A stretch of 32,000 nt of DNA from Halorhodospira halophila SL1 (GCF_000015585.1 NC_008789.1:840001-872000); one strand, 5' to 3'. Positions 5,472 to 26,301 are shown, counted from the stretch's first letter. Notes: generated by a model from the sequence alone, not told the origin. Translations and numbers: made by a program.

Positions 5472-5571
5472 GGGGCCTCTAGAAACCTGCTCTCAGCAAG
5501 TTGGCGCTTCTTGTGGAACAGAGTGAGTTGCGGCGCCTGCTTGCTGGCATTTAGTAGTTTTTAGAGGCCCC
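5472..5571. repeat. About 100-nt imperfect palindrome / long stem-loop downstream of the murB-like gene
   Basis: ggggcctcta (5472-5481) pairs with tagaggcccc (5562-5571), extendable to 14/15 with gaaac/gtttt. The inner stem cagcaagttggcgc (5494-5507) pairs with gcgcctgcttgctg (5533-5546) at 12/14. Confidence 0.75.
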
Positions 5572-5775
5572 ATCAAGCCTGAATAGATAACAGTCGTAGA
5601 ATCAACTTTAAAACACAACACTCATACCCGGAGTGAAGGAGGATGTTGCGATGGGAACACCAGCACCCGAGTAGTGACGAGCGTGCTCTCCCAGGCGGGT
5701 GCCGCGTCACAAATCCGCTCGGGGAACCGGTTATTCAGAACCGACTATTTAAAACCTGTTGTTAAGGAGTTTTTA

Positions 5776-6594
5776 ATGGTAATAAAACGCCCTCTGAGTC
5801 ACAGCTTAAAGCACAAAATTTTACGTCGCCACAACCCTCAATATGATCGGTGGCTAAAATCTTCTCAAAAAAATGTCGCACTTCTTCCTATACCGAAAAA
5901 CGCTAACACATGGCTAACATCAATTTTTCTGGTCAATCATGCTCCGTCATCAGGTTTTGACCCAATGCATGAAACGCCTTCTAGTTTTTTAAGAAAACAA
6001 CCTAGCATGTCTCCTAGGGTAAGTTCTTTTAATGAAATTATGGAAGATGCCACCCAGAAACTAATCGTTTTAAGAGACCCCAAAAAAAGGCTTGTAAGCG
6101 GCTTTTATGATAAACTTGTAAAAAAACATCAGAAAAACCCTAAATATAGTGAAGAGGTTGCTGCAGAGGCAGAAAAAGAAACGGGTAGCATTACTTTTTT
6201 AGATTTTCTGTCTTTTTTATCAAAAGTCCCAAAGTACCGGCTGAACTTCCATTTTTTGCCACAATATTTTTGGGTTGATTATTACGGTGAAGATTTTTTT
6301 AATAAAATTGGAACATTAGAAGACATAGAAGACATAGAAGCATACCTCAAAAACGAAGGTTTTGACATTTCGTTAGGCGGTGCGACTAACCTTCATTCTG
6401 GCATTCAAAAGAAAACAAATTACGCTTCAGAAGTTATCGATTGTACCAAAGCAACAATTGAAGATCTAAGCCGGTTAACATATCCCCCGCATTATTTGTC
6501 TTTTTTTGGCGAAAGTGAATGTCGCCTGTTTGAAGCCATGTACCAAAGAGATGTCGAAATTCATAAAAAATATTTTTGTCCTGAATCGACTTAA
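5776..6594 (+). CDS. Sulfotransferase (carbohydrate sulfotransferase, Sulfotransfer_2-like)
   Basis: 5'-PSB-like LLPIPKNANTWLTS and 3'-PB-like LIVLRDPKKRLVSGFYDKL are present, then FHFLPQYFWV. ATG 5776 is preceded by AAGGAG (5764-5769). The ORF is open from 5674, but that extension lacks an RBS. The coding sequence is AT-rich. Confidence 0.75.
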   Translation: MVIKRPLSHSLKHKILRRHNPQYDRWLKSSQKNVALLPIPKNANTWLTSIFLVNHAPSSGFDPMHETPSSFLRKQPSMSPRVSSFNEIMEDATQKLIVLRDPKKRLVSGFYDKLVKKHQKNPKYSEEVAAEAEKETGSITFLDFLSFLSKVPKYRLNFHFLPQYFWVDYYGEDFFNKIGTLEDIEDIEAYLKNEGFDISLGGATNLHSGIQKKTNYASEVIDCTKATIEDLSRLTYPPHYLSFFGESECRLFEAMYQRDVEIHKKYFCPEST

Positions 6595-6657
6595 TGCGAA
6601 TAGCCGTGAAAACACTAATGTACTTTGAAATCTTAACAACAACAGGAAGAGAGCTTA

Positions 6658-7587
6658 ATGTTTAGGCCTAGTCCACATAGTCACGTAGACGTTTTTACTA
6701 TTTGGCATAATAGGTGCGATCATGTTTTTGAGTCTATGTGTTCAATAATTTTTCAAAATTTCGCCAACTATCGAATCATTGCGGTAGATGACGGTTCAGT
6801 GGACGGCACAGGTGAGATGCTAGAGTCAGCAAAAGAGAAAGCTGCAGGTAACAACCTCGAAATGCTTGTTTGGAGAAAAAAAAACGAAGGATTCACGGTT
6901 TCACTGATTCAGGCAATCGAGCGTTATGGACAAGGTGATTTCTTTGCCTTGCACGGTGCAGGAGATTTTTCTTATCCGGATCGGTTGGCAATGCAATATG
7001 ACTTGGCCGAAAGAGAAGGGTGCTCGGTAGTAGGGTCCTGGATTAACGTTAGGAGTTTAAAACAAGACACAAAAAAAACACGCAAACCTACCAAAAAGCA
7101 AACTCGAAACCCTTTTGCCTACCAAAGACCAAAACCCGGCTCCCATGGTTCTGCTTTGATAAGAGCTGACTTATACCACAGAGCAGGGGGCTATAGACCT
7201 GAGTTCACGTATGCGCAAGATGCCGATCTTTGGCTACGAATTAGCAAACTTGCGCCAATAATGAATGTACAAAAAGTATTATACGAAAAAAAAGTATTTG
7301 ATGGATGTGTTTCATCCGACAGAAACAAAAAAAAAGCCCAAAAAAATTTCTACCTCGTGGCATTACAGTCTGCAATGAGCGTCGACTTGACGAATCACGA
7401 TGTTGTTGACGGTTTATGCGAACAAAATGTGGCCGAATACGTTAATAGTGATGTTGAGGCAGCGAATAGGTGCTTGAACCCGAAAGCTAAGCCCCCCCTC
7501 CCTCTTTTAACGCGGGTAGCCATTCCCATCTACAGACGGATAAAATCCGCCGTTTTACACCTTAGGGCGTACGCATATCACGGTTGA
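6658..7587 (+). CDS. Glycosyltransferase family 2
   Basis: FQNFANYRIIAVDDGSVDGTGEMLE is the GT-A nucleotide-binding region. A later acidic motif (YAQDADLWLR) is present. AT-rich, with several A8-A9 runs. Confidence 0.7.
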   Translation: MFRPSPHSHVDVFTIWHNRCDHVFESMCSIIFQNFANYRIIAVDDGSVDGTGEMLESAKEKAAGNNLEMLVWRKKNEGFTVSLIQAIERYGQGDFFALHGAGDFSYPDRLAMQYDLAEREGCSVVGSWINVRSLKQDTKKTRKPTKKQTRNPFAYQRPKPGSHGSALIRADLYHRAGGYRPEFTYAQDADLWLRISKLAPIMNVQKVLYEKKVFDGCVSSDRNKKKAQKNFYLVALQSAMSVDLTNHDVVDGLCEQNVAEYVNSDVEAANRCLNPKAKPPLPLLTRVAIPIYRRIKSAVLHLRAYAYHG

Positions 7588-8077
7588 CAACTGGTTTCGG
7601 ATCATTCAGTGCGCCCAGAACGCGCGGTTCACCAGTTGAGCAAGGTTCTACCCAGGCAGTAGCCGGTTTGAGCTAGTAGCTGACGAACGGTGCCGAGGCC
7701 TGACCGAAAATCAATATTCGAATTTGTCCGGTGAACAGCAACTTGGCCTGCGACAAGCTCACCCATCTGACCCCCTGTCTGTCAACCTGGAGCCATACAA
7801 CCCTTGCATGGGTTAACGTAGATTTCAGGGCCACGACAGCAGGAGCAGAAGGATGCCCACCCGGATTATTCATCGTTGGAACAGCCTGAAACCAATATGT
7901 CCCTTTGTATCAACAAGATATAAAGCGCCTGCCTGGCACCTCAGCTGCACCTCTTGGGTGAAGCTGAGGCTGGGCCTCGGGACTCGGCAGGTTGTTGATG
8001 ATAAAGGACATGAATTGTCCCTCTCGCTCTCTTCATGTTGGGTAGACCGGCTGGTCGCCCAGCCGGCCCCCCGATGA

Positions 8078-8127: not shown

Positions 8128-8835
8128 CTAGATGGCAGGGCGTGCATAAGGCTTCATGATCCGCGGCTGTGGCAGAGGGAGCCGGTGAAGGAGGTGAGAG
8201 AAGCGCCACCACGGCATCTGGCCTTTCTGAGAGCGCCGGGCTAGCCAAAAGCGCCAGCGTCGCCGGACACCCTGGGAGAACGCATCCAAAGCGTCGTAGT
8301 TGCCCGTGACGCCGTAGTACGCATAGTGCCCCTTCATTTTACGGCAGAGCACTTCCCACTGCTCTTCCACGGGCCGGTGGCGGTTCTGCCGGCACCAGCG
8401 GTGGATGTTGCGCAGGCTCCGGCTCAAGCGGTCCTTGGCCGTCTTGGCCTTGACGACCCACTTGCCGCGCCGGGATCGCCCCCAGTAGAGGGTGAAACCG
8501 AGCAGGTCGAAGGTCTCCGGCTTAGGCCAGGGGCGCTTGACGTTCCGAGGTGGGCGCTGGAAGCCGATCAACCGGGTCTTCTCCGGATGCAGCTCCAGCC
8601 CATACTTCTCGAACCGCCTCGGGAGCACCTTGAGGACCCGCTCGGCGTCATCCCGGAGCTTGAAGAGCAACACGGCGTCGTCGGCATACCGGACCAGCTG
8701 GGCCGGACCGCGGAGCCGCGGCTTGGCCTGCGTCTCGAACCACTCGTCCAGTACCTCATGGAGGAAGACATTGGCCAGCAGCGGCGAGACCACCCCGCCC
8801 TGCGGGGTGCCCTCTCCGAGGCGCTGCCACTGTCC
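8128..8835 (-). pseudogene. Group II intron reverse transcriptase/maturase, N-terminally truncated
   Basis: The reading frame continues upstream of the annotated Met as GQWQRLGEGTPQGGVVSPLLANVFLHEVLD (RT-4). YADDAVLL (RT-5) and the maturase X-domain pattern HYAYYGVTGNYDAL are also present. The frame is cut exactly at the IS3 terminus at 8835/8836. Confidence 0.85.
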
Positions 8836-8865: not shown

Positions 8866-9732
8866 TTAGCTATTAAGCCGGGCCTCGTAGTCGTCCGGGG
8901 ATAGGTACCCGAGCGTGCTATGAAGACGCCGGCGATTGTAGTAGCCCTCAATGTATTCGAAGACGGCCTCACGCATCGATGCCCGCGTGGGGAATTTCTC
9001 GCCATGCAGGGCCTCGACTTTCAGGGAACGGAAAAAGCTCTCGTTGCAGGCATTGTCGTAGCAGCTGCCCTTCGCGCTCATGCTGCTGATCAGCCCGTAG
9101 TCGCTGATGAGCCTGCGGTACGCACGGGAGCAGTACTGGCTGCCGCGATCCGTATGGACGATGACCCCCGTGGGGTAGCCTCGCCGTTCCAGGGCCATCA
9201 GAAGCGCCTCACAGGCCAGTTCAGCGCTCATCTGATCGCGCATGGCCCAACCGATCACTTTGCGGCCACAAAGATCCAGGACGACCGCGAGATAGAGCCA
9301 CCCTTCGCCGGTCGCAAAATACGTGATGTCGCCAGTCCACTTCTGGTTCCGCTGCCCCGCTTCAAAGCACTGGGCCAAGTGATTGGGGGCGACCGGCAGG
9401 CTGTGAGCCGAGTTCGTCGTCACCTTAAACCGGCGTGACGTGCGTGCCCGGAGGCCCTGACGGCGCATGCTCCGGGCCACGGTTTTGCGATTGACCGACA
9501 CGCCTTGCCCGTCCAGCTCTCGCGTCAGTCGAGGCGCCCCAGAGCGTTGCCTGGAGTCTTCGAAGGCCTCTTGCACCTGTCCATCAAAGGCCTGCTGGCG
9601 TTCTTCCCGTGCGGCGCGGGCCGCCTTGTTCCGGCACCATGCGTAGAAGCCGCTGCGAGCGACGCCAAGGACGCGGCACATCGCCTGGACTCGGTGCTCG
9701 TGACGCTGCTGATCGATGAACGCGTACTTCAC
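8866..9732 (-). CDS. IS3-family transposase OrfB (DDE/rve integrase core), expressed as an OrfAB fusion by -1 frameshift
   Basis: WTGDITYF...LYLAVVLDLCGRKVIGW, HTDRGSQYCS and CYDNACNESFFRSLKVE give the D, D, E triad context of IS3-family transposases. Confidence 0.9.
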   Translation of the reverse strand: MKYAFIDQQRHEHRVQAMCRVLGVARSGFYAWCRNKAARAAREERQQAFDGQVQEAFEDSRQRSGAPRLTRELDGQGVSVNRKTVARSMRRQGLRARTSRRFKVTTNSAHSLPVAPNHLAQCFEAGQRNQKWTGDITYFATGEGWLYLAVVLDLCGRKVIGWAMRDQMSAELACEALLMALERRGYPTGVIVHTDRGSQYCSRAYRRLISDYGLISSMSAKGSCYDNACNESFFRSLKVEALHGEKFPTRASMREAVFEYIEGYYNRRRLHSTLGYLSPDDYEARLNS

Positions 9733-10710: not shown

Positions 10711-11769
10711 TCAGGCGGCGTGAGCCGGTGCCGGGTGATCGAACGGCGCATACGTGCCTTGATCCCGACACAGGGCGTAAGCGCGCCGGGCCAGCTTGTT
10801 GGCCAGCGCAATCGTCGCCTTGTTGCGACCGATCCGCGCCTCGGTGTTCATCGCCCACGCCTCCAATGGCGTGAGTTCCGCTTGCTGTGCGGCTCGTCGG
10901 CGCATTCGGTACAGCGCTGATCGAGCCCCATGAATCAGCTGTTTCCGTACGTACGGGTCGCCGCTGCGGGTGATTCCACCCAGGCACCTGCGCGAACCGC
11001 TGCTGTATTCCTTCGGAGTGAGCCCGAGCCAACCCGGGAACTGCCGGGCACTAATGAACTGGCGCAGGTCGCCGACCGCGCTGACCAGCGCGGTGCTCGT
11101 GATCGCCCCGATACCCGGAAGTTGACTGATGCGGGCCGCATCCTGATCCTCGCGCTGAGTGGCCTGCAGCTGCGCGTCGATGTCGGCGACTTGGTCATCC
11201 ATGCGCTGAATGTTTTCAATAAGGTTGTGCAGTATCTGGCGGATCTTGTCCGGCACGGGTTGCTCTGCATCCTCAAGCACCCCGGGGGTTCGACGCCGTG
11301 CCGCGTGGGCGCCTTGGGGTAGGGTCACCCCGTGCTCGCGCAGCAGCCCCCGTGCCTGGTTGATCCACGCCGTGCGATTTCGGATCAACTGCTCGCGGAC
11401 GCGGTGGAGTTGCTGCACGGCTTGCTGCTCCGCGCTCTTGACCCGGATTGCGTGAATGTCCGGGGCGCGGTGCGCCTCAAGCAGTGCAAGCGTATCCGCG
11501 CGGTCCGTCTTGTTTCGCCGCCGATAGCTGGCAACGTACTGAGCAGGGAGTAGCCGGACCTCGTGTCCCTGAGCACCGAGTCTCCGGCCCCAGTGGTGCG
11601 CCATACCGCAGCCCTCGAGGACGAAGACACTTGGCGGCTGCTCCCCGATGAAACGCTCGAACTGCCCACGGCTCAGGCGACGGTGCTGCGGCTTCGTCCC
11701 CAGCCCGTCCGCGACGGCAACCTCGAAGACGTTCTTTGCCAAGTCAACGGCGACAATCTGCTGCGGCAT
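10711..11769 (-). CDS. IS110-family transposase (DEDD N-domain + Transposase_20 C-domain)
   Basis: IVAVDLAKNVFEVAV, VFVLEGCGMAHHWGRRL, NKTDRADTLALLEA, LPGIGAITSTALVSAVGDLRQF...RQFPGWLGLTPKEYSSG and GITRSGDPYVRKQLIHGA are all present. I chose ATG 11769 (MPQQ...) because GGAGGA lies 5 nt upstream; the ORF track starts at 11787. Confidence 0.9.
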   Translation of the reverse strand: MPQQIVAVDLAKNVFEVAVADGLGTKPQHRRLSRGQFERFIGEQPPSVFVLEGCGMAHHWGRRLGAQGHEVRLLPAQYVASYRRRNKTDRADTLALLEAHRAPDIHAIRVKSAEQQAVQQLHRVREQLIRNRTAWINQARGLLREHGVTLPQGAHAARRRTPGVLEDAEQPVPDKIRQILHNLIENIQRMDDQVADIDAQLQATQREDQDAARISQLPGIGAITSTALVSAVGDLRQFISARQFPGWLGLTPKEYSSGSRRCLGGITRSGDPYVRKQLIHGARSALYRMRRRAAQQAELTPLEAWAMNTEARIGRNKATIALANKLARRAYALCRDQGTYAPFDHPAPAHAA

Positions 11770-12087
11770 GACTTCCTCCATCACCATCCGTCGTGGGCCC
11801 TCTCCGTTACTCTAATGGTCGGAGAGAGGGGCGGGAGGAGGCCATCCCATCACGTACGTTCAATGGAGTCGAAGCGGCCGCTGGATGAGCCCCGGCGGTA
11901 GCTTCCTATTGCCAGATGCCCGTCTCACAGCCACCACGACCGCAGAACGATGCCTTCAGCAAGCCGTTGCGCCCCTCAGCGGACCCACTCACGCGCTGGG
12001 GTGGTCAGCTTGGCCGCGTCGTGAATACCGTGGGCTGAGATGCGATCAGTCCCAATTTTGACACATATTGTAACTATGGAGGACTGA

Positions 12088-13077
12088 ATGACGATTCTGG
12101 TGACCGGTGGTGCCGGGTATATCGGCAGCCACATGGTGCGCCGCCTGCTGGCGGATGGGTACGAGGTGGTGGCCCTGGACAATCTCTCCACCGGCCATCG
12201 CTGGGCGGTCCCGGAGGAGTGCCTGGAGGTTGGCGATCTGCAGGACCGGGACGCGTTGTCGACCCTGTTTCAGCGCTACCGCTTCTCGGCGGTGGTGCAT
12301 TTCGCAGCCAGCAGTCTAGTGGGGGAGTCGGAGGAACGGCCGCTGGAATACCACGAGAACAATGTCGGCGGTACTCTCAATCTGCTGCGCGCCTGCCTGG
12401 AGCTGGGGACGACGCGATTGATCTTCTCCTCATCGGCAGCGGTGTACGGGGCGCCGTCCGAGTCGCCGATCCCGGAGTCAGTGGCGCCGGCGCCCATCAA
12501 TCCCTACGGGGTAAGCAAGATGGTGTGTGAGCGCATGCTGGCCGATGTTTCCGTGGGGACGTCACTGCGCTTTGTGAGCCTGCGCTACTTCAATGCTGCG
12601 GGCGCTGATCCCAAGGGGCGGCTGGGGGAGTGCCATGAGCCAGAGACGCACCTGATCCCGCGACTGCTGCAGGTGGTCTCGGGGCGTTCGGCCGGTTTCA
12701 CCCTGTATGGCGACGACTACCCAACTCCGGACGGCACCTGTATCCGCGACTACATCCATGTGGAGGATTTGGTGGAGGCCCACGTGATAGCACTGGCGCA
12801 CCTAGAGGCGGGAGGCGAATCACGCACTTTCAATTGTGGGTATGGTCGGGGTTATTCTGTACGAGAGGTTATCGAAGTAGCACGCGCGGTAACTGGACAT
12901 CCTTTGCCAGTGGATGTTGGCCCCCGGCGCCCGGGTGATCCATCGCAGCTCGTGGCCGACGGATCGGCTCTACGGGAGACCCTTGGCTGGCGACCCCGTT
13001 ACGAATCACTAGAAACCATTGTGAGGGACGCTTGGCGGTGGGAGTCCAGACTCCAAGGAATGACGCAGTCCCGTTAA
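12088..13077 (+). CDS. galE: UDP-glucose 4-epimerase
   Basis: [15 protein letters not shown] Rossmann motif and the catalytic YGVSK (YxxxK) are present, along with [30 protein letters not shown] and [15 protein letters not shown] lies upstream of the ATG. Confidence 0.9.
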
Positions 13078-13162
13078 TGATACTACTAACAACCCTTTTT
13101 AGACCTCATGTTATTCGATTGTTAGCGGTTTGCAAGATCTATTACTTAGGTGGCCCAATAAA

Positions 13163-14263
13163 ATGTGCAGCAATGTTATTGTCTATTGTTCACACAGCGC
13201 AGCGTATACAAGCTCACCCCTTAATGAACATTACATCTATAGAAAATCACACTTCCCGAGAGAACAGCACTACTACATTGCTATTAATACATGCAAAGAA
13301 GAAAAGCGGTTTAAGAGCAACGAGAAATTCCGGATATTTGAATGCAAAGGAAACGATAAAAAACTCTTTGAAGCACTTGAAAATATAATCGATGCACACA
13401 CCCCTTCATCCAATATCATAATTCATAATCATGACCCAAAAGCGACAAAAAAAATCGCACATTTTATTAAAAAAAGACACCACAATATCCCTTTAGTGTA
13501 TACAATCCATAACTCCTATAACAAATTTAGTGCTCGGAAGAAATGCCTCACAAATCTATCCATCCTGCATAGTAGCAAATCCGTATTCTGCGGGCGCGCG
13601 GCTTATGAAGCATATCCTTATCGACATCTTTTTAAACAAAAAACAACATTCATACCGAACGGGGTTGATATAGATCGCATTGACTCTACTCTCAACCGCA
13701 GGGAAGGCACATCAAAGCCGAACGATTATCGTATAAAAGTGGCGACAATCGCGAAGAACAATGGGCAGAAAAACCTGCCACACCTACTGAAGTTAGCTAG
13801 CGAACTGCCAAAAGAAATGCATCTTAGTGTAATTGGCCCGCTTTCCGATGAAGACAAAAACAAAATCGAGTCTCTCGACACAAAGAACGTGAGGCACGTA
13901 GGTGTGCTTGAGCGCGACGAAGCACTCCTCGCATTGTCACAGAACGATATATTTGCCTCTTCTTCTTTTTACGAAGGCTTGCCTGTTGCGGTGCTTGAAG
14001 CTATGGCTATTGGATTGCCCGTAGTGCTATCACGTATCCCCCCTCATTTAGAGCTAAGCTCTAAGGGAGACGGACCCATTGTTGCTGAATGCGACCTCTC
14101 TCTCTGGAAACAAAAAATACGCGAACTGAACGAGCTGAAGCAACAAAAAAATAATGGGCTACAGGAGTTGGGCCAACTAAACCGCAAACTTGTGGAAGAG
14201 CACTTTAGCTTGGCAGCAATGCACAAAGCTTACAGTTCTGTTTATAAGGAATTACTCTATTAA
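13163..14263 (+). CDS. Glycosyltransferase family 4 (GT-B)
   Basis: The C-terminal EX7E region SSSFYEGLPVAVLEAMAIGLPVVLSRIPPHLEL is present. AT-rich. The ORF is open from TTG 13130; I chose ATG 13163, and the start is uncertain. Confidence 0.75.
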   Translation: MCSNVIVYCSHSAAYTSSPLNEHYIYRKSHFPREQHYYIAINTCKEEKRFKSNEKFRIFECKGNDKKLFEALENIIDAHTPSSNIIIHNHDPKATKKIAHFIKKRHHNIPLVYTIHNSYNKFSARKKCLTNLSILHSSKSVFCGRAAYEAYPYRHLFKQKTTFIPNGVDIDRIDSTLNRREGTSKPNDYRIKVATIAKNNGQKNLPHLLKLASELPKEMHLSVIGPLSDEDKNKIESLDTKNVRHVGVLERDEALLALSQNDIFASSSFYEGLPVAVLEAMAIGLPVVLSRIPPHLELSSKGDGPIVAECDLSLWKQKIRELNELKQQKNNGLQELGQLNRKLVEEHFSLAAMHKAYSSVYKELLY

Positions 14264-14279
14264 AAAGCATACTTTCGGT

Positions 14280-15035
14280 TTGACTTATGGGTGGCCTAAA
14301 ATTGAACAAAAACCTGTAACTGTTGATGTAGTCGGTTTTTCTGGCAGCGGAAAAACCATGTTAATTGATCTTTTAAAGAAAAAGTTTGAGCAGAATGGCT
14401 ATTTTGTCGATAGCTCGAGCCCTTACAAAGGAAAAACTGTTGATTCGCTTACATGCACAAGAGCGGCCAACGTTAATGTCTACCGCCTTTTACGTAGCTC
14501 CGCAACGCGGATCACCAAACCAGTTACTCTCTATGTAGCTATAGTTTTTTGGTTTTATTCAATATCCAGGCGTGTTTATCGTTTTAGGCATGCTTATAAC
14601 TTTGCATTGCGCGCATTGTCGCGCAGGACGCACAGCGGGAGAATAGTTCTAGAAGACACGCCCAGAACGTCAATTTTGCCGCTTTTTCTTCCACCTGTTG
14701 ATGGTCGTGGTTGGCGGGGAGGCATCCATCGATTATTGCATGCCGACTTTTTTCCCGATGCTATATTGGTAATTGACCTCCCGCCAGATTTAATGCGCAG
14801 CCGGGTTCTACAAAGAGAACGCCCTGGGGACAAGCACTCAGCGTTAGACGAATCAACATTTATCGATCTTGCAAATGCGTATAAGAAAAATATCAACACG
14901 TTAACTCGTTATCTTAAAAATAACACACGGACTACCGTTATTAAGATTGATGGCACACAAGATATTGAGGCCATCGCTAATAGTGCAGCTCAACAGGTAT
15001 TGTCTCGCTTGAGAAAAGCCGACAAAAACATTTGA
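14280..15035 (+). CDS. P-loop NTPase, kinase-like (family unresolved)
   Basis: Walker A VDVVGFSGSGKTMLIDLL is present. A later ILVIDLPPDLMRSRVLQRER resembles the lid region of small nucleotide/APS-type kinases, but I do not see the LDGDN motif of CysC. The ORF is open from TTG 14190, which would overlap the GT4 gene by 74 nt. TTG 14280 was chosen, and the start is uncertain. Confidence 0.55.
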   Translation: MTYGWPKIEQKPVTVDVVGFSGSGKTMLIDLLKKKFEQNGYFVDSSSPYKGKTVDSLTCTRAANVNVYRLLRSSATRITKPVTLYVAIVFWFYSISRRVYRFRHAYNFALRALSRRTHSGRIVLEDTPRTSILPLFLPPVDGRGWRGGIHRLLHADFFPDAILVIDLPPDLMRSRVLQRERPGDKHSALDESTFIDLANAYKKNINTLTRYLKNNTRTTVIKIDGTQDIEAIANSAAQQVLSRLRKADKNI

Positions 15036-15087: not shown

Positions 15088-18000
15088 TTGCGAGCGGCCC
15101 CGATGGTTCCACAGCTAACTGACTATAGTACGCTTATAATCCTCGGCGCCGGCGCCCCCCACCGTGGGGACCTTCCAGCCGCTCTGCGCGAGCCGCGCTC
15201 CGGCACTTCGGTCCTGCAGTGGCTGCTGGACGCGTCCGGCTGCTCGCTCGAGTGCACTACCTTCGTCGCTGGGTACCAAGCAGACGCAATTCGAGAGCGT
15301 TATCCCGATTTGGCGGTGGTGGAAAACCGGGATTGGGAGCACACGGGGAGTGGCGCTTCACTCCTGGCGGCGCCTTTTGGTACGAACTCCCCCCTGCTGG
15401 TCTGCTACAGCGACATCCTCTTCCGTCAGACAGTGCCCACGGCGCTGGCGCGCTGCGAGGCCGATGTGGCAGTGGCCTGGGACAGCGCCTGGGACCACCG
15501 CTACGCCGGGCGCGAGGCTGCGGACCTGGCCCGCTGCGAGAAGGTGATGGTCAACGGCGAGCGCATCGAGCGCCTCGGCGCCGACCTGCCGGTGGACTGG
15601 GCCGACGGCGAGTTCATTGGCCTGGTGCGCTTCTCCCCGCGCGCCCTGGAGTGGCTGGAGCGCCTGCGCGCGGACGGCCCCGAGAGCCTGCGCCAGCGCC
15701 ACCTCTCCGAATACATCGAATACCTGCGTGCGGCCGGCCTTTCGGTCGCCGGCGTCGATGTCGCTGGAGACTGGGCCGAGTTCAACGAACCACGGGACAT
15801 CGCCCACTTCATTCTCGGTACCAAGGCCGAGACATTGGGCCGGCTGCGCGGCATGGTCCGCCACGCGGTCATTCAGGACCAAGTCGTATGCACCGTCGCC
15901 GAGTGGCAAGCCGATCGCGCGGCGGTGATGGACCAGGTGCGCCAGCGCTTCACCGGAGAGCGGCTGGTTGTCCGCTCCAGCGCCCGTAGCGAGGACTCCT
16001 TCCACCATTCGAACGCTGGCGGCTACGACAGCCTGCTCAACGTCGATCCTCGGAATGGCCTTGAAGAGGCCGTCGAGCAAGTCATTGCTTCCTATGGGAC
16101 GGCGGATGACGACGACCAGGTGCTCATCCAGCCCATGGTCACCGACGTGGCCATGAGCGGCGTCGCCTTTACCCGTACCCTGGAGCACGGGGCACCGTGG
16201 TATGTGGTCAACTACGAGACCGCCGGCGACACCGAAGCCATCACCAGCGGGGCTAGCGGTGACCACCGCACGCTGCTGCTGCGCCGTGGCGCGGAACCCG
16301 AAACGCTGCCGGAGCCACGGCTGGGGCCGCTGGTGGCCGCACTGCACGAGATCGAGGCCCTCCTCGGTTACGACGCCCTGGACGTGGAATTCGCGCTCGA
16401 CCCCGCCGGCTCGGTGCACATCCTCCAGGTCCGACCCATCGCGGTAGATCGCAAGGGTAGCGACCTGGACGATAGTGCCTTCGACGCCGCCATGGCTGCC
16501 GCCCACGCCCGATGGGAGACGCTAACCCCGGCCCCACCCCACCTGCCCGGGGATCCGGCGCCGCTCTATGGCGTGATGCCCGACTGGAATCCGGCGGAGA
16601 TCATCGGCACCGCTCCGGGCGCCCTGGCCGCCAGTCTCTACCGTCACCTGATCATGGACGAGACCTGGGCCATCCAGCGCGCCGAGTACGGTTACCGCGA
16701 CGTGCGCCCGGCTCCACTGCTTGTGGAGTTCGCTGGCCACCCGTATGTGGATGTGCGTGCCAGCTTTGCCTCGTTCCTGCCGGCGGAACTCCCCGACGAT
16801 TTGGCCGGCCGGCTGCTGAGCTTCTACCTGGAGTGGCTGCGCCAGCGCCCGGAGCTCCACGACAAGGTGGAGTTCGAGGTGGTGCCCACCTGCCTGGCCC
16901 CCGGCTTCGAGGGCTGGGAGCGGCGCCTGCAGGAGGACGGCGGCTTCAGTACCGACGAGGTCCGCGCCCTGCGCGAGGGGCTACGCCGGATCACCGCCGG
17001 CGCCTTCCACCGCTGCGAGGACGATCTGGCGCAGATCGAGACCCTGCGCCAACGCTTCCAGGCGATCGAGGGCGATACCCGGCTGGCACCACTGGAGCGC
17101 GCACGGATCCTACTGGACGACTGCCGGCGGCTTGGGACACTGCCGTTCTCCCATCTGGCTCGCAGCGGTTTCGTCGCCGTAACACTGCTGCGCGAAGCCG
17201 AGGCGTGCGGGATGATCAGCGCAACCGCCCGGGAGAGCTTTCTCTCCACGGTCCGAACGGTGAGCCACCGGCTCACGGCGGACGCACGGGCCACCGCCAC
17301 CGGGGAGATGAGCGAGCACGCCTTTATCGCTCGTTACGGCCACCTGCGCCCGGGCACCTATGACATCACCTCGCCCCGTTACGACGCCGATCCAGAGCGC
17401 TTCCTCCGGCCGCTGGTGGAGCACGCCCGGGAGGCTGCCATGGAGGAAGAAAACCCTGGGCCCTGGCAAGCCGAGCGCGCAGCCTTCTTCTCGGCACTGG
17501 CCGAGCTCGGCCTGCCGGCCGACCCGGAGCGGGTCGAGACCTTCCTGCGTCAGGCCATCGAGGGGCGGGAATACGCCAAGTTCATCTTCAGCCGCAACCT
17601 GTCCGCGGCGCTGGAGGCACTGGCTGAGGCGGGAGCACAGTACGGTCTGGAGCGCGCCCAGGTCGCGCACCTGCCGCTGGACGAGCTACTCGCCCTGCGC
17701 TCCGCGGCGCGTTCTGATGAGGCGATCGCCCGTCATCTGAGGATGCGCGCCGATGAGGAGGCCGAGGCCCGGCGGGTGGCAGGGGCCTGCGAGCTACCGC
17801 CGCTGATCACCGGCCAGGCGGACCTGGATGCCTTCGTCATTGGTGCCGACCGACCCAACTTCATCGGCTCCGGCTGCATCACGGCGGACTGCCTGGACCT
17901 CGGCGATCAACCGGCCGATGCGGACCTAGACGTGTCCGGGCGGATCGTCCTCATCCCTCAGGCCGATCCCGGCTACGATTGGCTCTTCGGCCAGGGGATC

Positions 18001-18171
18001 ACCGGGCTGGTGACCCTCTACGGCGGCGCCAACTCGCACATGGCCATCCGCGCTGCGGAATTCGGTCTACCGGCCGCCATCGGCATTGGCGAGCAACGCT
18101 ACCGTGAATTGGCCCAAGCGCGAGTTGTCGAGCTTGCCCCGGCCAACGGCATCCTGCGGGTGGTCCGATGA
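15088..18171 (+). CDS. Three-part fusion: N-terminal nucleotidyltransferase-like domain + PPDK_N (ATP-grasp) domain + C-terminal PEP-utilizer phosphohistidine swivel domain; candidate L-glutamine kinase (Cj1418-like)
   Basis: The N-terminus (about 250 aa) has LIILGAGAPHRGDLPAAL and is paralogous to the 18803 gene. The middle has GTKAETLGRL...LVVRSSARSEDSFHHSNAGGYDSLLNV. The C-terminus has GLVTLYGGANSHMAIRAAEFGLPAAIG (His codon at 18037-18039). No TIM-barrel PEP/pyruvate domain is present. The start is either TTG 15088 or ATG 15103. Confidence 0.8.
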   Translation: MRAAPMVPQLTDYSTLIILGAGAPHRGDLPAALREPRSGTSVLQWLLDASGCSLECTTFVAGYQADAIRERYPDLAVVENRDWEHTGSGASLLAAPFGTNSPLLVCYSDILFRQTVPTALARCEADVAVAWDSAWDHRYAGREAADLARCEKVMVNGERIERLGADLPVDWADGEFIGLVRFSPRALEWLERLRADGPESLRQRHLSEYIEYLRAAGLSVAGVDVAGDWAEFNEPRDIAHFILGTKAETLGRLRGMVRHAVIQDQVVCTVAEWQADRAAVMDQVRQRFTGERLVVRSSARSEDSFHHSNAGGYDSLLNVDPRNGLEEAVEQVIASYGTADDDDQVLIQPMVTDVAMSGVAFTRTLEHGAPWYVVNYETAGDTEAITSGASGDHRTLLLRRGAEPETLPEPRLGPLVAALHEIEALLGYDALDVEFALDPAGSVHILQVRPIAVDRKGSDLDDSAFDAAMAAAHARWETLTPAPPHLPGDPAPLYGVMPDWNPAEIIGTAPGALAASLYRHLIMDETWAIQRAEYGYRDVRPAPLLVEFAGHPYVDVRASFASFLPAELPDDLAGRLLSFYLEWLRQRPELHDKVEFEVVPTCLAPGFEGWERRLQEDGGFSTDEVRALREGLRRITAGAFHRCEDDLAQIETLRQRFQAIEGDTRLAPLERARILLDDCRRLGTLPFSHLARSGFVAVTLLREAEACGMISATARESFLSTVRTVSHRLTADARATATGEMSEHAFIARYGHLRPGTYDITSPRYDADPERFLRPLVEHAREAAMEEENPGPWQAERAAFFSALAELGLPADPERVETFLRQAIEGREYAKFIFSRNLSAALEALAEAGAQYGLERAQVAHLPLDELLALRSAARSDEAIARHLRMRADEEAEARRVAGACELPPLITGQADLDAFVIGADRPNFIGSGCITADCLDLGDQPADADLDVSGRIVLIPQADPGYDWLFGQGITGLVTLYGGANSHMAIRAAEFGLPAAIGIGEQRYRELAQARVVELAPANGILRVVR

Positions 18172-18806
18172 GGCGCAGGGTTGCCGTCAGCCAGCGCTGC
18201 GATGCCGTGCCCGGGCGTGACGAGGTGCGCGACACCCTCGACGTGCGTTTGGCGACGCTGCTCTGGGATTTGGGGTTTCTGCCGGTTCCCATGGCCAGCC
18301 ACATCACCGATCGTGCTGCCTACTTTGAGGCCGTTGAGCCCGAGGCCGTGGTCCTTAGCGGCGGGAACAACATTGGCGAGGCCCCCGAGCGCGATCACTT
18401 AGAGATGGCCCTGCTTGATCACGCGGCCGCTTTTAGGCTGCCCGTAGTTGGGATCTGTCGCGGCATGCAGATGATGAACCACTACCAGGGTGGCGCCCTG
18501 CGGGCGGTCGCCAGGCATGTCGCGGTGCGCCACCGGGTCAGCGGCCCGCTGGCAGGGGCAGACCGCCGAGTGGTGAACAGCTACCACGACCAGGGCATGC
18601 TCGACGCCGACCTCGGTGACGACCTTGAGGCCATGGCCTGGTCCGAGGACGGCGCAGTGGAAGCGCTGCGCCACCGGGAGTGGCCGTGGCTCGGGATCAT
18701 GTGGCACCCGGAGCGCGACGCGCCCGTCGCTGAGTCTAACCGAAAGCTAATTCGAAACCACCTGGAAGGCCTACCTTTGGACCTTTCCCACGGAGAGACC
18801 TCATGA
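18168..18806 (+). CDS. Class-I glutamine amidotransferase-like hydrolase (peptidase C26 / PuuD-like); candidate gamma-glutamyl-phosphoramidate hydrolase (Cj1417-like)
   Basis: The nucleophile elbow VVGICRGMQMMN (Cys codon at 18456-18458) and GIMWHPER (His-Glu) are present. ATGA overlaps the upstream stop. Confidence 0.8.
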   Translation: MRRRVAVSQRCDAVPGRDEVRDTLDVRLATLLWDLGFLPVPMASHITDRAAYFEAVEPEAVVLSGGNNIGEAPERDHLEMALLDHAAAFRLPVVGICRGMQMMNHYQGGALRAVARHVAVRHRVSGPLAGADRRVVNSYHDQGMLDADLGDDLEAMAWSEDGAVEALRHREWPWLGIMWHPERDAPVAESNRKLIRNHLEGLPLDLSHGETS

Positions 18807-19552
18807 AAGCGATCATCCTGGCCGCTGGACAAGGTACCCGCCTGCGGCCCCTGACCGACGACAAGCCGAAGTGCCTCGTTGAGTTGGCGGGCAAATCCCT
18901 GCTCGACCACCAACTTGATGTGCTGCGCGCCGCCGGGGTCGATGACATCCACGTGGTCGCTGGCTACCGCGCCGATCAGCTGGAGCGACCCGGGTTCACC
19001 CGCCACATTAACGAGCGTTATGCCGAAACCAACATGGTCGGCACGCTCTTTGCTGCCGAGTCGGTGATGACTGGGGAGAGCGACCTGATTATTAGCTACG
19101 GCGACATCGTCTACGAGCCTCGGGTCCTGGCGGCGCTGCAAGCGGTGGACGCCCCGATCGGACTGGCGGTGGACCGCGAGTGGCGGCGCTACTGGGCGGC
19201 GCGCATGGACGACCCGCTGGCCGACGCCGAGACCCTGAAGCTCACCGATGGCGACCGGGTCGTGGAGTTGGGCAAGAAGCCGGAGGGCTACGCGGACATC
19301 CAGGGCCAGTACACCGGCCTCATCAAGGTCCGCGCCGACCATGTGCGACGGCTGCCCGAAGTCTGGCGCGCCATGGACCGGCACGCCACCTACGACGGCA
19401 AGGATTACGACAACATGTACATGACCAGCTTCATCCAGCACCTCATCGACATGGGCTGGGAAGCGCGCGCCGCCTTCATCGACAACGGCTGGGCGGAAGT
19501 GGACTGCGAGGCCGATCTCGCCGCAGCGACCGGGTTCTGGAGTGCGGGATAA
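18803..19552 (+). CDS. Sugar/phospho-X nucleotidyltransferase (LicC/cytidylyltransferase-like); candidate phosphoramidate cytidylyltransferase (Cj1416-like)
   Basis: MKAIILAAGQGTRLRPLTDDKPKCLVELAGKSLL is the canonical GxGxR signature, followed by YGDIVY. ATGA overlaps the upstream stop. Confidence 0.8.
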   Translation: MKAIILAAGQGTRLRPLTDDKPKCLVELAGKSLLDHQLDVLRAAGVDDIHVVAGYRADQLERPGFTRHINERYAETNMVGTLFAAESVMTGESDLIISYGDIVYEPRVLAALQAVDAPIGLAVDREWRRYWAARMDDPLADAETLKLTDGDRVVELGKKPEGYADIQGQYTGLIKVRADHVRRLPEVWRAMDRHATYDGKDYDNMYMTSFIQHLIDMGWEARAAFIDNGWAEVDCEADLAAATGFWSAG

Positions 19553-19582: not shown

Positions 19583-21247
19583 ATGAGTCAAGCCGACACC
19601 GAGAACAAATTGCGTACCCGCTCTCCCGACGAGCTCTCTTTGCAGATGGAGGGACTCATTGCGCTCCGTGAGGTCCTCAGTGAGCACCTTGATCGTTGGT
19701 TTCTCAGCGGGGGAACGCTCCTCGGCGCTTATCGAGATGGCGACTTCATTCCATGGGATTGGGACGTTGAGGTGACGGTGCTTACCGAGGAAGCGCAACC
19801 GAAAGAGGGCGCACTTCTTAAAGCACTCCTCGAGGCCGGATTCACCATCACCTCATCCGATTCGTCGCATGAGAATTTTAAAATCGTCGCCTCCGGCTGG
19901 GGAACCGAGTACGAGATCCTCGGCCGGTACCTAGCCGAAGATGGCAACGGACGCATCCGGTTGATGACTGAAGTGCCCGCCCGCTTCTTTGAACAACATG
20001 AGCCTGTGACCTTTCGTGGGCACACCTTCCCCGCACCTAGCCCTACAGATGACTTTCTGGAAGCACTCTATGGAGACTGGCGAACACCGCTGAAGTCAGC
20101 CGATAAAAAGACCTACTTTTCTGGGACTGCATACCGCAAGAACACGCACTCTAGTCCTTCTGCGCGTACCGCCCAGATCCGCAAGCTGCTAGTCCCCGCA
20201 CAGGTGCGGGAGTTTCCTGAGGTTGGAAGGGCTGCCCTTGATCGCTTCCAGTCCTGGGATCAAGAACTGGGCTGGTGTAATCAGCCCAATGTCACGAAGG
20301 TCGATCAATCTGATCGATCGGCCGGCACCAAGAAAGACGCCCCCGGACTGGCCGTCTTCTCCACGGACGAGACGGGCTCCCGCAGTTGTCGCCACCCGAC
20401 CGAAAAACCAGATGTCAGCTGCTACGGCGACGGCTACTGCATGTGCCGGGACGTTCATGATCATGAGACCTTCCCTTGGTTCCTAGGCGACCGGAGGGGC
20501 ACCCGTGTCTCCAACTACGGCGTTGGCAACTACGGGCTTGACCAAGCCCTCCTCCGGCTGCGGCGAGACTACCGTAACGATCCGGCCGACACGGTCGTCC
20601 TTGCCGTCACCTCCATCACCATGGCGCGCTGTGTGTCCGTGTACCGACACTACCTAGAGCCCGGTAACCTCTTCGCGATCAAGCCACGGTTCCGGCTTTC
20701 CGAACAGGATGGATCACTGCAGACCGTTGATTACCCGCTCAACGACAAGCACGATCTCTTGAGGCTGGAAAAATATGCTGACTTCTTTCGCGGGAACGAC
20801 GAGCACTATAGCTTTTGGCGAAGGAGTCGAGTTAACTACTACACGCACCAATTACCAAAAAAGATCGGCGCTCGCTTTGGGGTCACTTCTTTACCCGCCC
20901 CTTACAAGACCTTTGAGTACGAGATTAGCTTCTGGCGGAGCCACGAGTGTTTATTTTTTGGGATGATGGGTTACTATCAGGCCTTGGCCGACAAACATGG
21001 GTTCCGGCCGATTTTTCTGCTCCAGCACCACAACCGAAGCCTTGAGTACCTGAAGGAACGACCGTCACACGAACTGCCCTGGGCCTCGGTACTGTCTAAG
21101 GCCGCGGACCACTTCCCGGGCATAACCTTCTTGGATGAAGCTAATATCTTTGCCGACTATCCGAATATTGACGAGCTGTACATAAGATCGCACCACTCTG
21201 CGCATGCGAATCGTATGATCGCCGATTATTTGAACAACTTTCTATGA
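19583..21247 (+). CDS. LicD-family phosphotransferase fused to a C-terminal SGNH/GDSL-like domain
   Basis: The N-terminus has FLSGGTLLGAYRDGDFIPWDWDVEVTV and FLEALYGDWRTP, which are LicD motifs. The C-terminus has SCYGDGYCMCRDVHDHETFPWFL...VSNYGVGNYGLDQALLRL and a terminal SHHSAHANRMIADYL, resembling SGNH blocks I, II and V with Gly where the block-I Ser is expected. AAAGGA lies 6 nt upstream of the ATG. Confidence 0.7.
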   Translation: MSQADTENKLRTRSPDELSLQMEGLIALREVLSEHLDRWFLSGGTLLGAYRDGDFIPWDWDVEVTVLTEEAQPKEGALLKALLEAGFTITSSDSSHENFKIVASGWGTEYEILGRYLAEDGNGRIRLMTEVPARFFEQHEPVTFRGHTFPAPSPTDDFLEALYGDWRTPLKSADKKTYFSGTAYRKNTHSSPSARTAQIRKLLVPAQVREFPEVGRAALDRFQSWDQELGWCNQPNVTKVDQSDRSAGTKKDAPGLAVFSTDETGSRSCRHPTEKPDVSCYGDGYCMCRDVHDHETFPWFLGDRRGTRVSNYGVGNYGLDQALLRLRRDYRNDPADTVVLAVTSITMARCVSVYRHYLEPGNLFAIKPRFRLSEQDGSLQTVDYPLNDKHDLLRLEKYADFFRGNDEHYSFWRRSRVNYYTHQLPKKIGARFGVTSLPAPYKTFEYEISFWRSHECLFFGMMGYYQALADKHGFRPIFLLQHHNRSLEYLKERPSHELPWASVLSKAADHFPGITFLDEANIFADYPNIDELYIRSHHSAHANRMIADYLNNFL

Positions 21248-22212
21248 CTTCAGAATCACCCAGCACTCCCAAAATCATCGTCCTTGGTACAACGTACTCT
21301 GGATCAGGCGCGGTCTATGACTATCTAGCCAACCGAGGGGACGGGTACGATCCACTCGCCGGGCACGAATACCTCCTCCCGCAGATACCTTATGGCCTGA
21401 TGTGTCTGCGCTCTGCAATAGGTGAATCGTTCCATCACGCTATAGCAGACCATGCCGTCAGGGCTTTTCTCTCCGTTACGGAACAACTGACACGCACAGG
21501 GACTCGGACTCGATATGGAAAGGGATATGGCGTACTCCTGCCGCGCTTCCTAGAGGAGGTTAGGCAGCTTGTGCACGATGCCACTGCCGCTGAATTCCCG
21601 TTACAGCTAGAATGGAGAAAAGCGGAAGAGACGCGGCTGAGGCGCACCGTCAATTGGGTGTTGGCCCGATTTCTCAGATACAGGTCACCCCCTGAGAACA
21701 CCTGGCTCCCGGTCCCTGAAAAGGAGTTCGTTCAACTTACGCAGCGTATGCACGACCGCCTCTTCGTGATGCCTTCAGGCACCTCGGCCAGTTTCACCCT
21801 TCTCAACCAGTCCGGCTCTGGCTGGAACCCGGTGGCGTCTACCGACTTTTTCTCACACAGAAAGGTCGTCCTGGTAACAAGAGACCCACGCGATCAGTTT
21901 GCCGAGTTGAAAACTTTTAAGCGTGCGCGTAACGTCGATGAGTTCGTCAAATGGTATCGTGCCATGCAACAGCGAATTGAGATCGAGCACCCGGATTTGC
22001 ACATTGTGCGCTTTGAAGATTTTGTTTTAGATCATCATGACGCCAAATCAAGCTTGTGCGTTTTTTCTGGGATTGAAGCAGATGTTCCAAGTTCATACTC
22101 GACCGAGATGTCAACTTTAAACATTTCAAAGTATCGACAAACGCTCTCCTCAGAAGAGATAGAAAAACTCGAAACGGAGCTTGGCCAGCACATCCGGGAA
22201 CGAGTTCAATGA
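21244..22212 (+). CDS. Sulfotransferase-fold protein
   Basis: KIIVLGTTYSGSGAVYDYL is 5'-PSB loop-like, VVLVTRDPRDQFAEL is 3'-PB-like, and IVRFEDFVLD is present. ATGA overlaps both neighbours. Confidence 0.65.
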   Translation: MTSESPSTPKIIVLGTTYSGSGAVYDYLANRGDGYDPLAGHEYLLPQIPYGLMCLRSAIGESFHHAIADHAVRAFLSVTEQLTRTGTRTRYGKGYGVLLPRFLEEVRQLVHDATAAEFPLQLEWRKAEETRLRRTVNWVLARFLRYRSPPENTWLPVPEKEFVQLTQRMHDRLFVMPSGTSASFTLLNQSGSGWNPVASTDFFSHRKVVLVTRDPRDQFAELKTFKRARNVDEFVKWYRAMQQRIEIEHPDLHIVRFEDFVLDHHDAKSSLCVFSGIEADVPSSYSTEMSTLNISKYRQTLSSEEIEKLETELGQHIRERVQ

Positions 22213-24871: not shown

Positions 24872-25035
24872 AAATCCTGGCTCACCCTGAACATTTTTTG
24901 TCTCCTTATCCTCTAAGTCACGCAAACCACGAGTACTGCGCCTCCTAATCATTAATTCCCGCAACATCTATCCCACTCAGGGTAAGCGTTGCGGTTTTGA
25001 ATATTGAGCCTCCCTCCAGTTTATTTTTTTACTGC

Positions 25036-26301
25036 ATGACACGCTTAAGAAGTCCAGCTTACCAACCGCCAACCCACCGCGGCAAAACATCCGGGAACGG
25101 GAGCCTTTTTTTTCTAGGTGGGTTGTTCCTACTGTTTTTTTTATTGGTTTTCCGTTTACGCGTTGATCTTTATGACCTAACCATACCTTTAGCCTTTCTG
25201 TCTCTTTTTTTTCTGTATCACAGCCAGAGGTTACCACTTCATTTTCTGTCTGGCTTTGCTCTTCTATTGGCTTTTTCAGCTTACACATACATTATATCAA
25301 TCGCACAAGAGCCAACCGTAGATTCTCATATACTGCTAAAGCAACCACGGGTTTTGCTTTCGTATGCTTCGGTTTTTATTATAACGTGGGCGCTTTTGCG
25401 AAACAATCCTGATATATCCATAAACGCTGCGCACAAGACACTTGCAGCCGTCCTTTCCCTGCATCCGTTAATACTTTTTCTTCAGGTCGTCATACCATCA
25501 TTCAATGAGTGGTGGGCTGCAAGCTTTTTAGCCACCGGCGCTTTTAATATAGAGCGTGGTCGCGGTCTTTCGCCAGGTACTAGTGCAGGCGGGCAGATTC
25601 TTGGCTTCATTTCTCTTTATTATTTTTATCTGTCGAGCCGATTAGACAACCCGAGATACGCACTGGCAGCCCTGTTGACTTTACCTCTTTATCCTTTAAG
25701 CGCTTTGGCGGGCCTTGCCCCTTTTACCATTGGATTTCTATATTGGACGTACTCAGGAGGCCTGCGGCTTGTACCCTTCACCAAATGGGCTGTTGGACTT
25801 TTGGTCGTCATGGCATTTACATGCTTCGCATATTTTATAGACCCTGACAACCTGCTCTTCCAGAGGCTTCAACAGGGTCTACTTCGCGTTTTTGCTGGAC
25901 TTGGTTTTTACGATTCACAGGTTTTACATGGAGACCCAAGGGCCTCGCAGCAATCATTATTAGGAAGTTACAGCACGCCTCCGCTAGATAGACCAGGACA
26001 GTGGCTTTTTGGAAACGCCCAAGAGTACGGACCCGACAAAACTTTCTCTAGCGACGCAGGCTTCGTCCGTTTTCTGCACGTATACGGAATAACGGGCACA
26101 GCATTGGCTTTCTTTGTCATTGCTTGGTTTGTTTATACTGGTAAAAGCATATTGCTCTTTCTATTTGCATTATCTTTCTTTGTTTTACAATACAAAAACC
26201 ACATGCTGTTTGGCCGCATCTCATTTGATCTTTTCTTCCTCTGGTGGACTCTATCAATACTTGAAAGGAATGCATACAATCACCGAAGCTCCAGCCACTG
26301 A
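25036..26301 (+). CDS. Polytopic membrane protein, Wzy / O-antigen-ligase-like polymerase
   Basis: About 10 or more hydrophobic segments throughout, with a larger loop region (GFYDSQVLHGDPRASQQSLLGSYSTPPLDRPGQWLFGN). AT-rich. Called from context inside the glycan locus. The start is ambiguous (TTG 24997 or ATG 25036). Confidence 0.55.
   Translation: MTRLRSPAYQPPTHRGKTSGNGSLFFLGGLFLLFFLLVFRLRVDLYDLTIPLAFLSLFFLYHSQRLPLHFLSGFALLLAFSAYTYIISIAQEPTVDSHILLKQPRVLLSYASVFIITWALLRNNPDISINAAHKTLAAVLSLHPLILFLQVVIPSFNEWWAASFLATGAFNIERGRGLSPGTSAGGQILGFISLYYFYLSSRLDNPRYALAALLTLPLYPLSALAGLAPFTIGFLYWTYSGGLRLVPFTKWAVGLLVVMAFTCFAYFIDPDNLLFQRLQQGLLRVFAGLGFYDSQVLHGDPRASQQSLLGSYSTPPLDRPGQWLFGNAQEYGPDKTFSSDAGFVRFLHVYGITGTALAFFVIAWFVYTGKSILLFLFALSFFVLQYKNHMLFGRISFDLFFLWWTLSILERNAYNHRSSSH

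Follow-up and report, generated by a model that had tools for sequence, protein, structure and literature searches.

A degenerate cytidylyltransferase-like domain is fused to the N-terminus of a predicted L-glutamine kinase in Halorhodospira halophila and bacteria of many phyla

We analysed a stretch of 32,000 nucleotides (nt) from Halorhodospira halophila SL1 (GCF_000015585.1 NC_008789.1:840001-872000), which is referred to as the window in the following. A gene at 15088-18171 encodes a protein in which a nucleotidyltransferase-like domain (the N-domain) precedes a predicted L-glutamine kinase. In Campylobacter jejuni L-glutamine kinase starts the O-methyl phosphoramidate modification of the capsule, and to our knowledge the enzyme has been characterised solely in this species. 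The N-domain resembles the cytidylyltransferase predicted to act directly after the kinase. It has lost the catalytic signature of this enzyme and has kept residues on the opposite side of the pocket. We lean, without firm conviction, towards the explanation that the N-domain is a conserved, non-catalytic pseudo-cytidylyltransferase which binds a ligand of the pathway and couples or regulates its steps 1 and 2.

Architecture of the fused protein

The gene and its parts are as follows.

15088-18171, forward strand: single gene for the putative pseudo-cytidylyltransferase domain and the L-glutamine kinase; probable start ATG 15103, public annotation starting at TTG 15310
15124-15807, forward strand: N-terminal nucleotidyltransferase-fold domain, residues ~13-240 (BLASTP, AlphaFold2, Foldseek)
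15814-15837, forward strand: invariant LGTKAETL, residues 243-250, which follows the last helix of the N-domain and opens the ATP-grasp domain of the kinase
15922-16209, forward strand: core match to PPDK_N (ATP-grasp), residues 279-374 (PF01326, 56.8 bits)
17938-18117, forward strand: PEP-utilizers mobile (phosphohistidine) domain, residues 951-1010 (PF00391, 39.4 bits)

An extra nucleotidyltransferase-like domain at the N-terminus of the kinase had been proposed in an earlier reading of the DNA sequence alone (the original prediction), and structure modelling bears it out. Modelled alone by AlphaFold2, the N-domain reaches a predicted local distance difference test score (pLDDT) of 90 and a predicted template modelling score (pTM) of 0.89. 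Inside the full-length model its pLDDT is ~77-94. In Foldseek the best matches are the CTP:inositol-1-phosphate cytidylyltransferase (IPCT) structures 4mnd (E 1.3e-12) and 2xme, at E ~1e-12 with a target-relative template modelling (TM) score of 0.74. The next matches are PntC, MurU and GlmU, down to E 1e-9, and RmlA. The worry attached to the proposal, namely that structure prediction might yield no nucleotidyltransferase fold, did not materialise; according to the models the N-domain has a LicC/IPCT-type cytidylyltransferase fold. The Pfam family PF12804 matches the window N-domain weakly (21.6 bits, below the cut-off of 27), while scores above this cut-off are reached by two orthologues, P0007 (36.3 bits) and P0043 (28.5 bits). 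For many fused homologues PF27448 is listed as precomputed Pfam match. A phmmer search of the N-domain against PDB sequences gave no match.

The remainder of the protein corresponds to a curated kinase family. The NF004508/PRK05849 profile aligns residues 236-1024 with positions 4-786 of its 789 positions (854.3 bits, cut-off 501). As this match begins at residue 236, the first ~235 residues are extra to the family. The protein departs by these residues from the single module of ~790 residues seen in the NF004508 model, and every other feature of the Cj1418 family that can be checked in silico is present in the kinase part. The motif GGANSH984M within the PEP-utilizers domain is invariant in 49 sequences (His codon 18037-18039). 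The closest solved fold for residues ~240-1027 is rifampin phosphotransferase (Foldseek, 5hv1, E 4.5e-20), and four fused homologues carry the JGI name 'glutamine kinase'. By homology the kinase part is predicted to be an active L-glutamine kinase of the Cj1418 type that makes L-glutamine phosphate.

Both parts are connected without a linker. A helix of residues 235-242 passes directly into LGTKAETL, and the Cj1418-type model starts at 236, within this region. The full-length AlphaFold2 model has an overall pLDDT of 85.5 and a pTM of 0.75. Together the junction helix and the model indicate that the N-domain is joined rigidly to the N-terminus of the kinase.

The open reading frame (ORF) is free of interruptions and spans 1027 amino acids from TTG 15088 or 1022 amino acids from ATG 15103; the closest in-frame stop upstream is at 15010. 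ATG 15103 is located 11 codons ahead of the first conserved strand, agrees with the starts of homologues and is the probable true start of the gene. The public entry for the identical protein of Halorhodospira halophila (P0001, 953 amino acids) begins at TTG 15310. It drops the first 74 residues, comprising strands 1-3, and splits the N-domain in half. We regard this start as a truncated annotation because residues 15-74 are kept in frame in more than 100 homologues, with L19, A21, G22, P24, G27, W45 and G62 invariant among 105 close homologues. The same conservation speaks against a true start downstream of the N-domain, by which the proposed domain would have been an artefact. The GC content rises from ~43% to ~65% immediately upstream of the kinase gene. 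Long antisense and alternative-frame ORFs inside 15164-17740 were considered and taken as high-GC artefacts.

Residues ~1-250 had been aligned by eye with the product of 18803-19552, a stand-alone cytidylyltransferase encoded two genes downstream. BLASTP recovers this alignment end to end and with the stretch quoted at that time (residues 17-239 against 4-240, 28% identity, 58.9 bits, E 5e-15). When a profile is built from 25 N-domains, 75 of 75 stand-alone enzymes from the corresponding gene cassettes of other genomes reach 55-104 bits (median 78), and no solved nucleotidyltransferase exceeds 27 bits. Because the profile favours the cassette enzymes over the solved nucleotidyltransferases, we conclude that the N-domain derives from the cassette cytidylyltransferase subfamily. 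The proposed paralogy with the gene two downstream hence holds at the level of the subfamily but not as closest kinship. Three stand-alone proteins with intact motif (P0254, P0265 and P0266) reach ~111-114 bits to the N-domain, compared to the 58.9 bits of the window neighbour by BLASTP. The product of 18803-19552 is therefore a paralogue of the N-domain and not necessarily its direct parent. P0266 is fused to a methyltransferase. P0254 (L081 117-890) was tried as a candidate for the state before fusion and rejected; no kinase is encoded on its 3.5-kb contig, where it lies beside genes for a large membrane protein and an MFS transporter.

Signature and pocket of the N-domain

Two elements of the N-domain active site are referred to below.

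15142-15186, forward strand: degenerate signature loop LGAGAPHRGDLPAAL, residues 19-33, replacing GXG(T/S)RX4-8PK (alignment)
15406-15414, forward strand: Y107-S-D109, counterpart of the metal/catalytic Asp in Y-G-D of the stand-alone enzyme (D109 kept in 71/71)

Residues were counted per column in an alignment of 71 N-domains from many phyla and 75 stand-alone partner enzymes. The signature had been described as degenerate in the fused copy, and the alignment confirms this. The N-domain reads GAGAPHRGDLPAAL where the stand-alone enzyme reads AAGQGTRLRPLTDDKPKCL, and the loop of the window copy, GAGAPHRGDLPA, does not conform to GXG(T/S)RX4-8PK. In the 75 partners the Gly residues G9 and G11, the Arg R13 as well as P22 and K23 are each present in 100%. 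The N-domains show G20-A21-G22-x-P24-x-x-G27 at the glycines and have the motif Arg in only 27/71. The column of the motif Lys holds S, A, P, T, C, V or N and never K (0/71). Moreover the spacing from Arg to Pro, which is in the range of 4-8 in the partners, is 3 in the N-domains, the loop being 5 residues shorter.

The Arg of GXG(T/S)RX4-8PK builds the pyrophosphate site together with the backbone, and the alpha-phosphate is contacted by the Lys (Arg15/Lys25, PMC6697681). FrbH and YgbP were inactive after exchange of the Lys to Ala, and PntC with R15A or K25A retained <10% activity (PMC6697681).

The side of the pocket facing metal and substrate presents another picture. The partners have D101, D124, R134, E143 and W230-x-E232 here, and the N-domains Y107-x-D109 (D in 71/71), D132, R138, R142, E151, W229 (71/71) and E231 (67/71). 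These retained residues share alignment columns with invariant residues of the active partner. The last acidic column is D234 in the partners, while the N-domains have N in 48/71 and D in 15/71. The alignment thus suggests an N-domain without the pyrophosphate/alpha-phosphate half of the active site and with the metal/phospho-substrate half. The simplest reading is that it would be unable to run the normal CTP-dependent transfer. An inactive domain had been raised as a possibility before, and the degeneracy of the motif argues for a loss of catalysis.

Over 62 genomes the N-domains share a mean pairwise identity of 36%. The kinase (46%), the free cytidylyltransferase (50%) and the amidotransferase encoded between these two (42%) have higher values. 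Across phyla, 29 positions of N-domain and junction are conserved to >=90%, 23 of them inside residues 13-240. Judged by these values the constraint on the N-domain is relaxed yet clearly present. Faster change combined with conserved positions would be the pattern expected of a non-catalytic functional module. A retained fold, lost catalytic residues and purifying selection, the three marks of a pseudo-nucleotidyltransferase, are all found in the N-domain.

Conservation of the cassette and role of the N-domain

The kinase gene is followed by the two other genes of the cassette.

18168-18806, forward strand: class-I glutamine amidotransferase, Cj1417-like; its start overlaps the kinase stop
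18803-19552, forward strand: canonical cytidylyltransferase (AAGQGTRLRPLTDDKPK) encoded as a separate gene, Cj1416-like, with a start that overlaps the stop of the amidotransferase gene

The top NCBIfam match of the former is gamma-glutamyl-CDP-amidate hydrolase with 100 bits, which is under the cut-off of 250. The latter matches PF12804 with 62.3 bits, has the intact signature and LicC as closest solved relative; no curated Cj1416 model matched it.

Relatives were searched by scanning one genome per species. At least 598 were found, and all locus counts refer to the best 80 of these. The N-domain is present in 80/80 loci. They belong to Gamma-, Beta- and Alphaproteobacteria, Bdellovibrionales, Myxococcota, Flavobacteriales, Planctomycetota, Verrucomicrobiota, Chloroflexota, Actinomycetota, Acidobacteriota, Cyanobacteria, Spirochaetales, Chlamydiales, SAR86 and Pelagibacteraceae. 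In the protein database more than 100 clusters of ~1010-1045 amino acids show 50-85% identity across 98-100% of the query, with sources in Halorhodospira, Spiribacter, Halomonas, Marinobacter, Pseudomonas, Providencia, Natronospira and one cyanobacterium. A search for the architecture across genomes, as suggested with the original prediction, hence reveals no local oddity. As to source names, some homologues are called 'glutamine kinase' and several 'choline kinase'; the latter name looks mis-transferred from LicC/LicA-type annotation.

An exhaustive search with the N-domain alone retrieved 103 representatives at E <=1e-30, nearly all being fused proteins of ~1000 amino acids or fragments. A word-indexed search gave 19 matches, mostly fragments of fused proteins. 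Short matches were considered as free degenerate N-domains but rejected, as most continue into kinase sequence and represent truncated gene calls.

The amidotransferase follows the kinase in 77/80 loci. A separate cytidylyltransferase with intact motif is found in ~75/80, and the remainder are mostly cut by contig ends. It is usually located directly 3' of the amidotransferase, in several Alphaproteobacteria 1-2 kb upstream. Since a separate canonical enzyme exists in ~75/80 loci, the fused domain does not replace the free enzyme. One locus is built differently. In L054 (7899-11449), a metagenome-assembled genome of Kofleriaceae, an ORF for a cytidylyltransferase with canonical motif (ALILAAGRGSRLRPHTDHVPK...) enters the kinase ORF via a frame change. 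Of the usual N-domain the kinase ORF retains only the C-terminal ~75 residues, and a separate cytidylyltransferase is missing downstream. This may be a natural fusion of an active domain, a recombinant or an assembly error.

According to a preprint summary and the names of the NCBIfam families, the pathway leads from the kinase to CTP:phosphoglutamine cytidylyltransferase and on to gamma-glutamyl-CDP-amidate hydrolase. As far as these sources go, the free cytidylyltransferase would make CDP-L-glutamine, from which the amidotransferase would yield CDP-phosphoramidate. The latter would then be transferred to a surface glycan. The original prediction had assumed that the fusion links the first and third steps. 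This has to be corrected; in the above order the cytidylyltransferase is step 2, so that consecutive steps are joined.

On this background we envisage that the kinase N-terminus acquired a copy of a LicC/Cj1416-type cytidylyltransferase long ago, and that this copy is now degenerate. Candidate ligands are CDP-L-glutamine or CDP-amidate, as CDP-linked products, and L-glutamine phosphate. The residues that would hold the leaving pyrophosphate have been lost, which favours binding of either the phospho-substrate or a CDP conjugate resembling the product over CTP turnover. With the ligand bound, the N-domain would adjust the kinase, which catalyses the first committed step at the cost of ATP, to the flux further down the pathway. 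Alternatively it might keep hold of the labile N-P intermediate until the true cytidylyltransferase takes it over.

In its most specific form the proposal reads as follows: the N-domain is a metabolite sensor in cis, taken from the second enzyme of the pathway, which binds CDP-L-glutamine or CDP-phosphoramidate and gates the kinase. It would be a fused bacterial counterpart of GMPPA/GMPPB, and glutamine kinases outside Campylobacter would normally be fused in this way. We put this forward tentatively and hold it to be possible rather than probable. If true, phosphoramidate-type decoration of glycans would be regulated and widespread across many phyla.

Several points weigh against a ligand-binding pseudoenzyme. 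The window copy has R26 at the canonical Arg column, and position 23 is R or K in 52/71 N-domains and might stand in for the lost basic residues. Mg2+ binding might persist through Asn233, which occupies the position of the second acidic metal ligand. Furthermore, LicC-type enzymes are reported to be monomeric (PMC6697681), which leaves no ready-made interface for docking of the partner enzyme.

The last point also bears on the view that the dead domain serves as a docking or channelling scaffold. It would recruit the stand-alone cytidylyltransferase or the amidotransferase, and the acid-labile L-glutamine phosphate would be passed from step 1 to step 2. That N-domain and partner enzyme belong to one subfamily is in line with this view, as is the consecutive order of both steps. 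Likewise, the three genes are translationally coupled via overlapping stop and start codons and stay together in ~75/80 loci. However, the conserved residues of the N-domain are found at active-site columns and not in a separate surface patch, and with LicC and a PntC of the subfamily being monomeric there is no homodimer interface to re-use. From the position of these residues in the alignment, ligand binding would account for them no less well than a pure scaffold. We consider a scaffold function unlikely, if worth keeping in mind. It overlaps with the preferred explanation in the hand-off of a ligand and does not exclude it.

An active, non-canonical nucleotidyltransferase seems improbable to us. 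In that case R/K23, R26, R138 and R142 would take over, another substrate or nucleotide would be used, and the protein would be truly bifunctional like the Ppm-cytidylyltransferase fusions. Such a reading gains from the conservation of D109, D132, E151 and E231, from the basic residues at position 23 and in the window copy named above, and from L054, which appears to have a canonical-motif domain ahead of the kinase and no separate enzyme. In addition, active LicC-like domains are often fused to the first pathway enzyme in phosphonate clusters (PMC6697681). It is at odds with the absence of the motif Lys in 71/71, the variable Arg and the shortened pyrophosphate loop, as related enzymes are crippled by such mutations. 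Moreover the canonical stand-alone enzyme is kept in essentially every locus, and the N-domain changes faster than every catalytic partner.

Equally improbable is a structural relic that only stabilises or oligomerises the kinase without any ligand. In its favour, sequence change in the N-domain outpaces that of the other proteins of the cassette, and the Campylobacter-type family model describes a kinase that does without the domain. However, a purely structural role would not preserve active-site columns, where most of the ~23 positions with >=90% conservation are found (D109 and W229 in 71/71, E151, R142), and the fusion is kept across very distant lineages.

Surrounding locus and relation to known systems

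The gene content marks the window as a mosaic locus for surface polysaccharide, with genes for an ABC exporter (1097-2899), six glycosyltransferases, sulfotransferases, a MurA/MurB-like pair and a GalE-like epimerase as well as several remnants of insertion sequences. Directly downstream of the cassette lies a further gene of note.

19583-21247, forward strand: protein of 554 amino acids with a LicD-family N-terminal domain and ~400 residues without family match (Pfam matches residues 39-67 only)

The next gene (21244-22212) encodes a protein of 322 amino acids that reaches 23.9 bits with Sulfotransfer_3, a weak match under the cut-off. Both products are candidate transferases for the CDP-linked phosphoramidate. 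In 52/80 loci the core is followed by at least one of a TagF-like CDP-glycerol-type phosphotransferase (PF04464), a Formyl_trans_N-like protein and a methyltransferase (e.g. L009 14469-15665; L019 14813-15736 and 16895-18067; L023 13682-14542, 15805-16659 and 17938-19095). This downstream tailoring set is therefore conserved among the relatives and differs from the LicD-like/sulfotransferase-like set of the window.

Upstream, a P-loop kinase-like ORF (14190-15035; AAA_33 with 31 bits, weak matches to thymidylate and deoxynucleoside kinases) of 43% GC ends 53 nt before the glutamine kinase gene. This ORF and the preceding glycosyltransferase ORF have 74 nt in common, so its true start is probably further downstream. 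Of the ORFs scanned in the window, none was recognised as a Cj1415-type (APS-kinase-like) gene; the ORF at 14190-15035 might fill this role or be unrelated.

Islands of low GC (38-48%) at 5001-8000, 13001-15000 and 25001-26000 are embedded in a locus of 60-69% GC. They carry a sulfotransferase, glycosyltransferases of families GT2 and GT4 and an unannotated ORF of 434 amino acids, and they suggest a mosaic, horizontally assembled polysaccharide locus. Mobile remnants are located on the reverse strand, namely an RVT_1 fragment (8128-8793), an IS3-type integrase (rve, 8866-9732), an IS110-family transposase (10711-11787) and a DDE_Tnp_1 transposase (30642-31991). Rfam gave no group II intron RNA for the reverse-transcriptase fragment at 8128-8793, and the Rfam, promoter and terminator scans returned nothing relevant. 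The MurA-like (EPSP_synthase family) and MurB-like pair at 3101-5430 adjoins the ABC exporter and may point to an enolpyruvyl- or lactyl-modified sugar.

Among known systems the closest is Cj1418 of Campylobacter jejuni (EC 2.7.3.13). Common to both are the ATP-grasp and phosphohistidine swivel domains with the conserved His, the whole length of the family model, and the order with Cj1417-like and then Cj1416-like genes. We take the order kinase, amidotransferase, cytidylyltransferase to be that of the C. jejuni capsule locus (cj1418c-cj1416c). In contrast, the window kinase has ~235 extra N-terminal residues, the family model beginning at the junction helix, and the neighbouring transferases of the window are LicD-like and sulfotransferase-like. 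The original prediction had held the fused architecture to be absent from the Campylobacter enzyme. The results are consistent with this, whereby the statement rests on the boundaries of the NF004508 model (789 positions, match starting at residue 236).

With Cj1416 and the COG1213/LicC-type enzymes (LicC 1jyk, IPCT 2xme/4mnd, PntC 6pd1) the N-domain has the fold and the Y-x-D, D..W, R, E and W-x-E columns in common. It differs by the broken signature and by the free canonical enzyme which accompanies it in ~75/80 loci. Ppm-cytidylyltransferase fusions and Fom1 likewise carry a LicC-like domain on the first committed enzyme of a surface-decorating phosphorus pathway, but their domains keep the motif and are active, whereas the kinase N-domain has lost it and a separate, predicted active enzyme is kept (PMC6697681). 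GMPPA (PDB 7d72) is an inactive paralogue which binds GDP-mannose and restrains GMPPB. As a conserved paralogue of nucleotidyltransferase fold without catalysis it offers a model for product sensing and feedback. However, GMPPA is a separate subunit acting on its own active paralogue, while the N-domain is located in cis on a kinase and a sensing role is only proposed here. Rifampin phosphotransferase (5hv1, 5fbs) shares the ATP-grasp domain, a substrate domain and the His swivel domain with the kinase part, but has ~17% identity, acts on another substrate and lacks an N-terminal nucleotidyltransferase-like domain.

Literature searches gave no description of the fused form, though a mention in the primary Cj1418/Cj1416 papers is possible. 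Taken together, the fused kinase is a real, widespread and uncharacterised variant of a known enzyme, the architecture of which was already visible through PF12804 matches. Close relatives of the kinase with the three-gene core are found in at least 80 species genomes of many phyla, and each of them bears a conserved, apparently dead copy of the next enzyme. If the N-domain senses or hands over intermediates, it would show clearly for bacteria how a duplicated pathway enzyme can become a pseudoenzyme that controls the first step of that same pathway. The fusion moreover flags a large unexplored set of loci for phosphoramidate (or related CDP-activated) modification of surface glycans.

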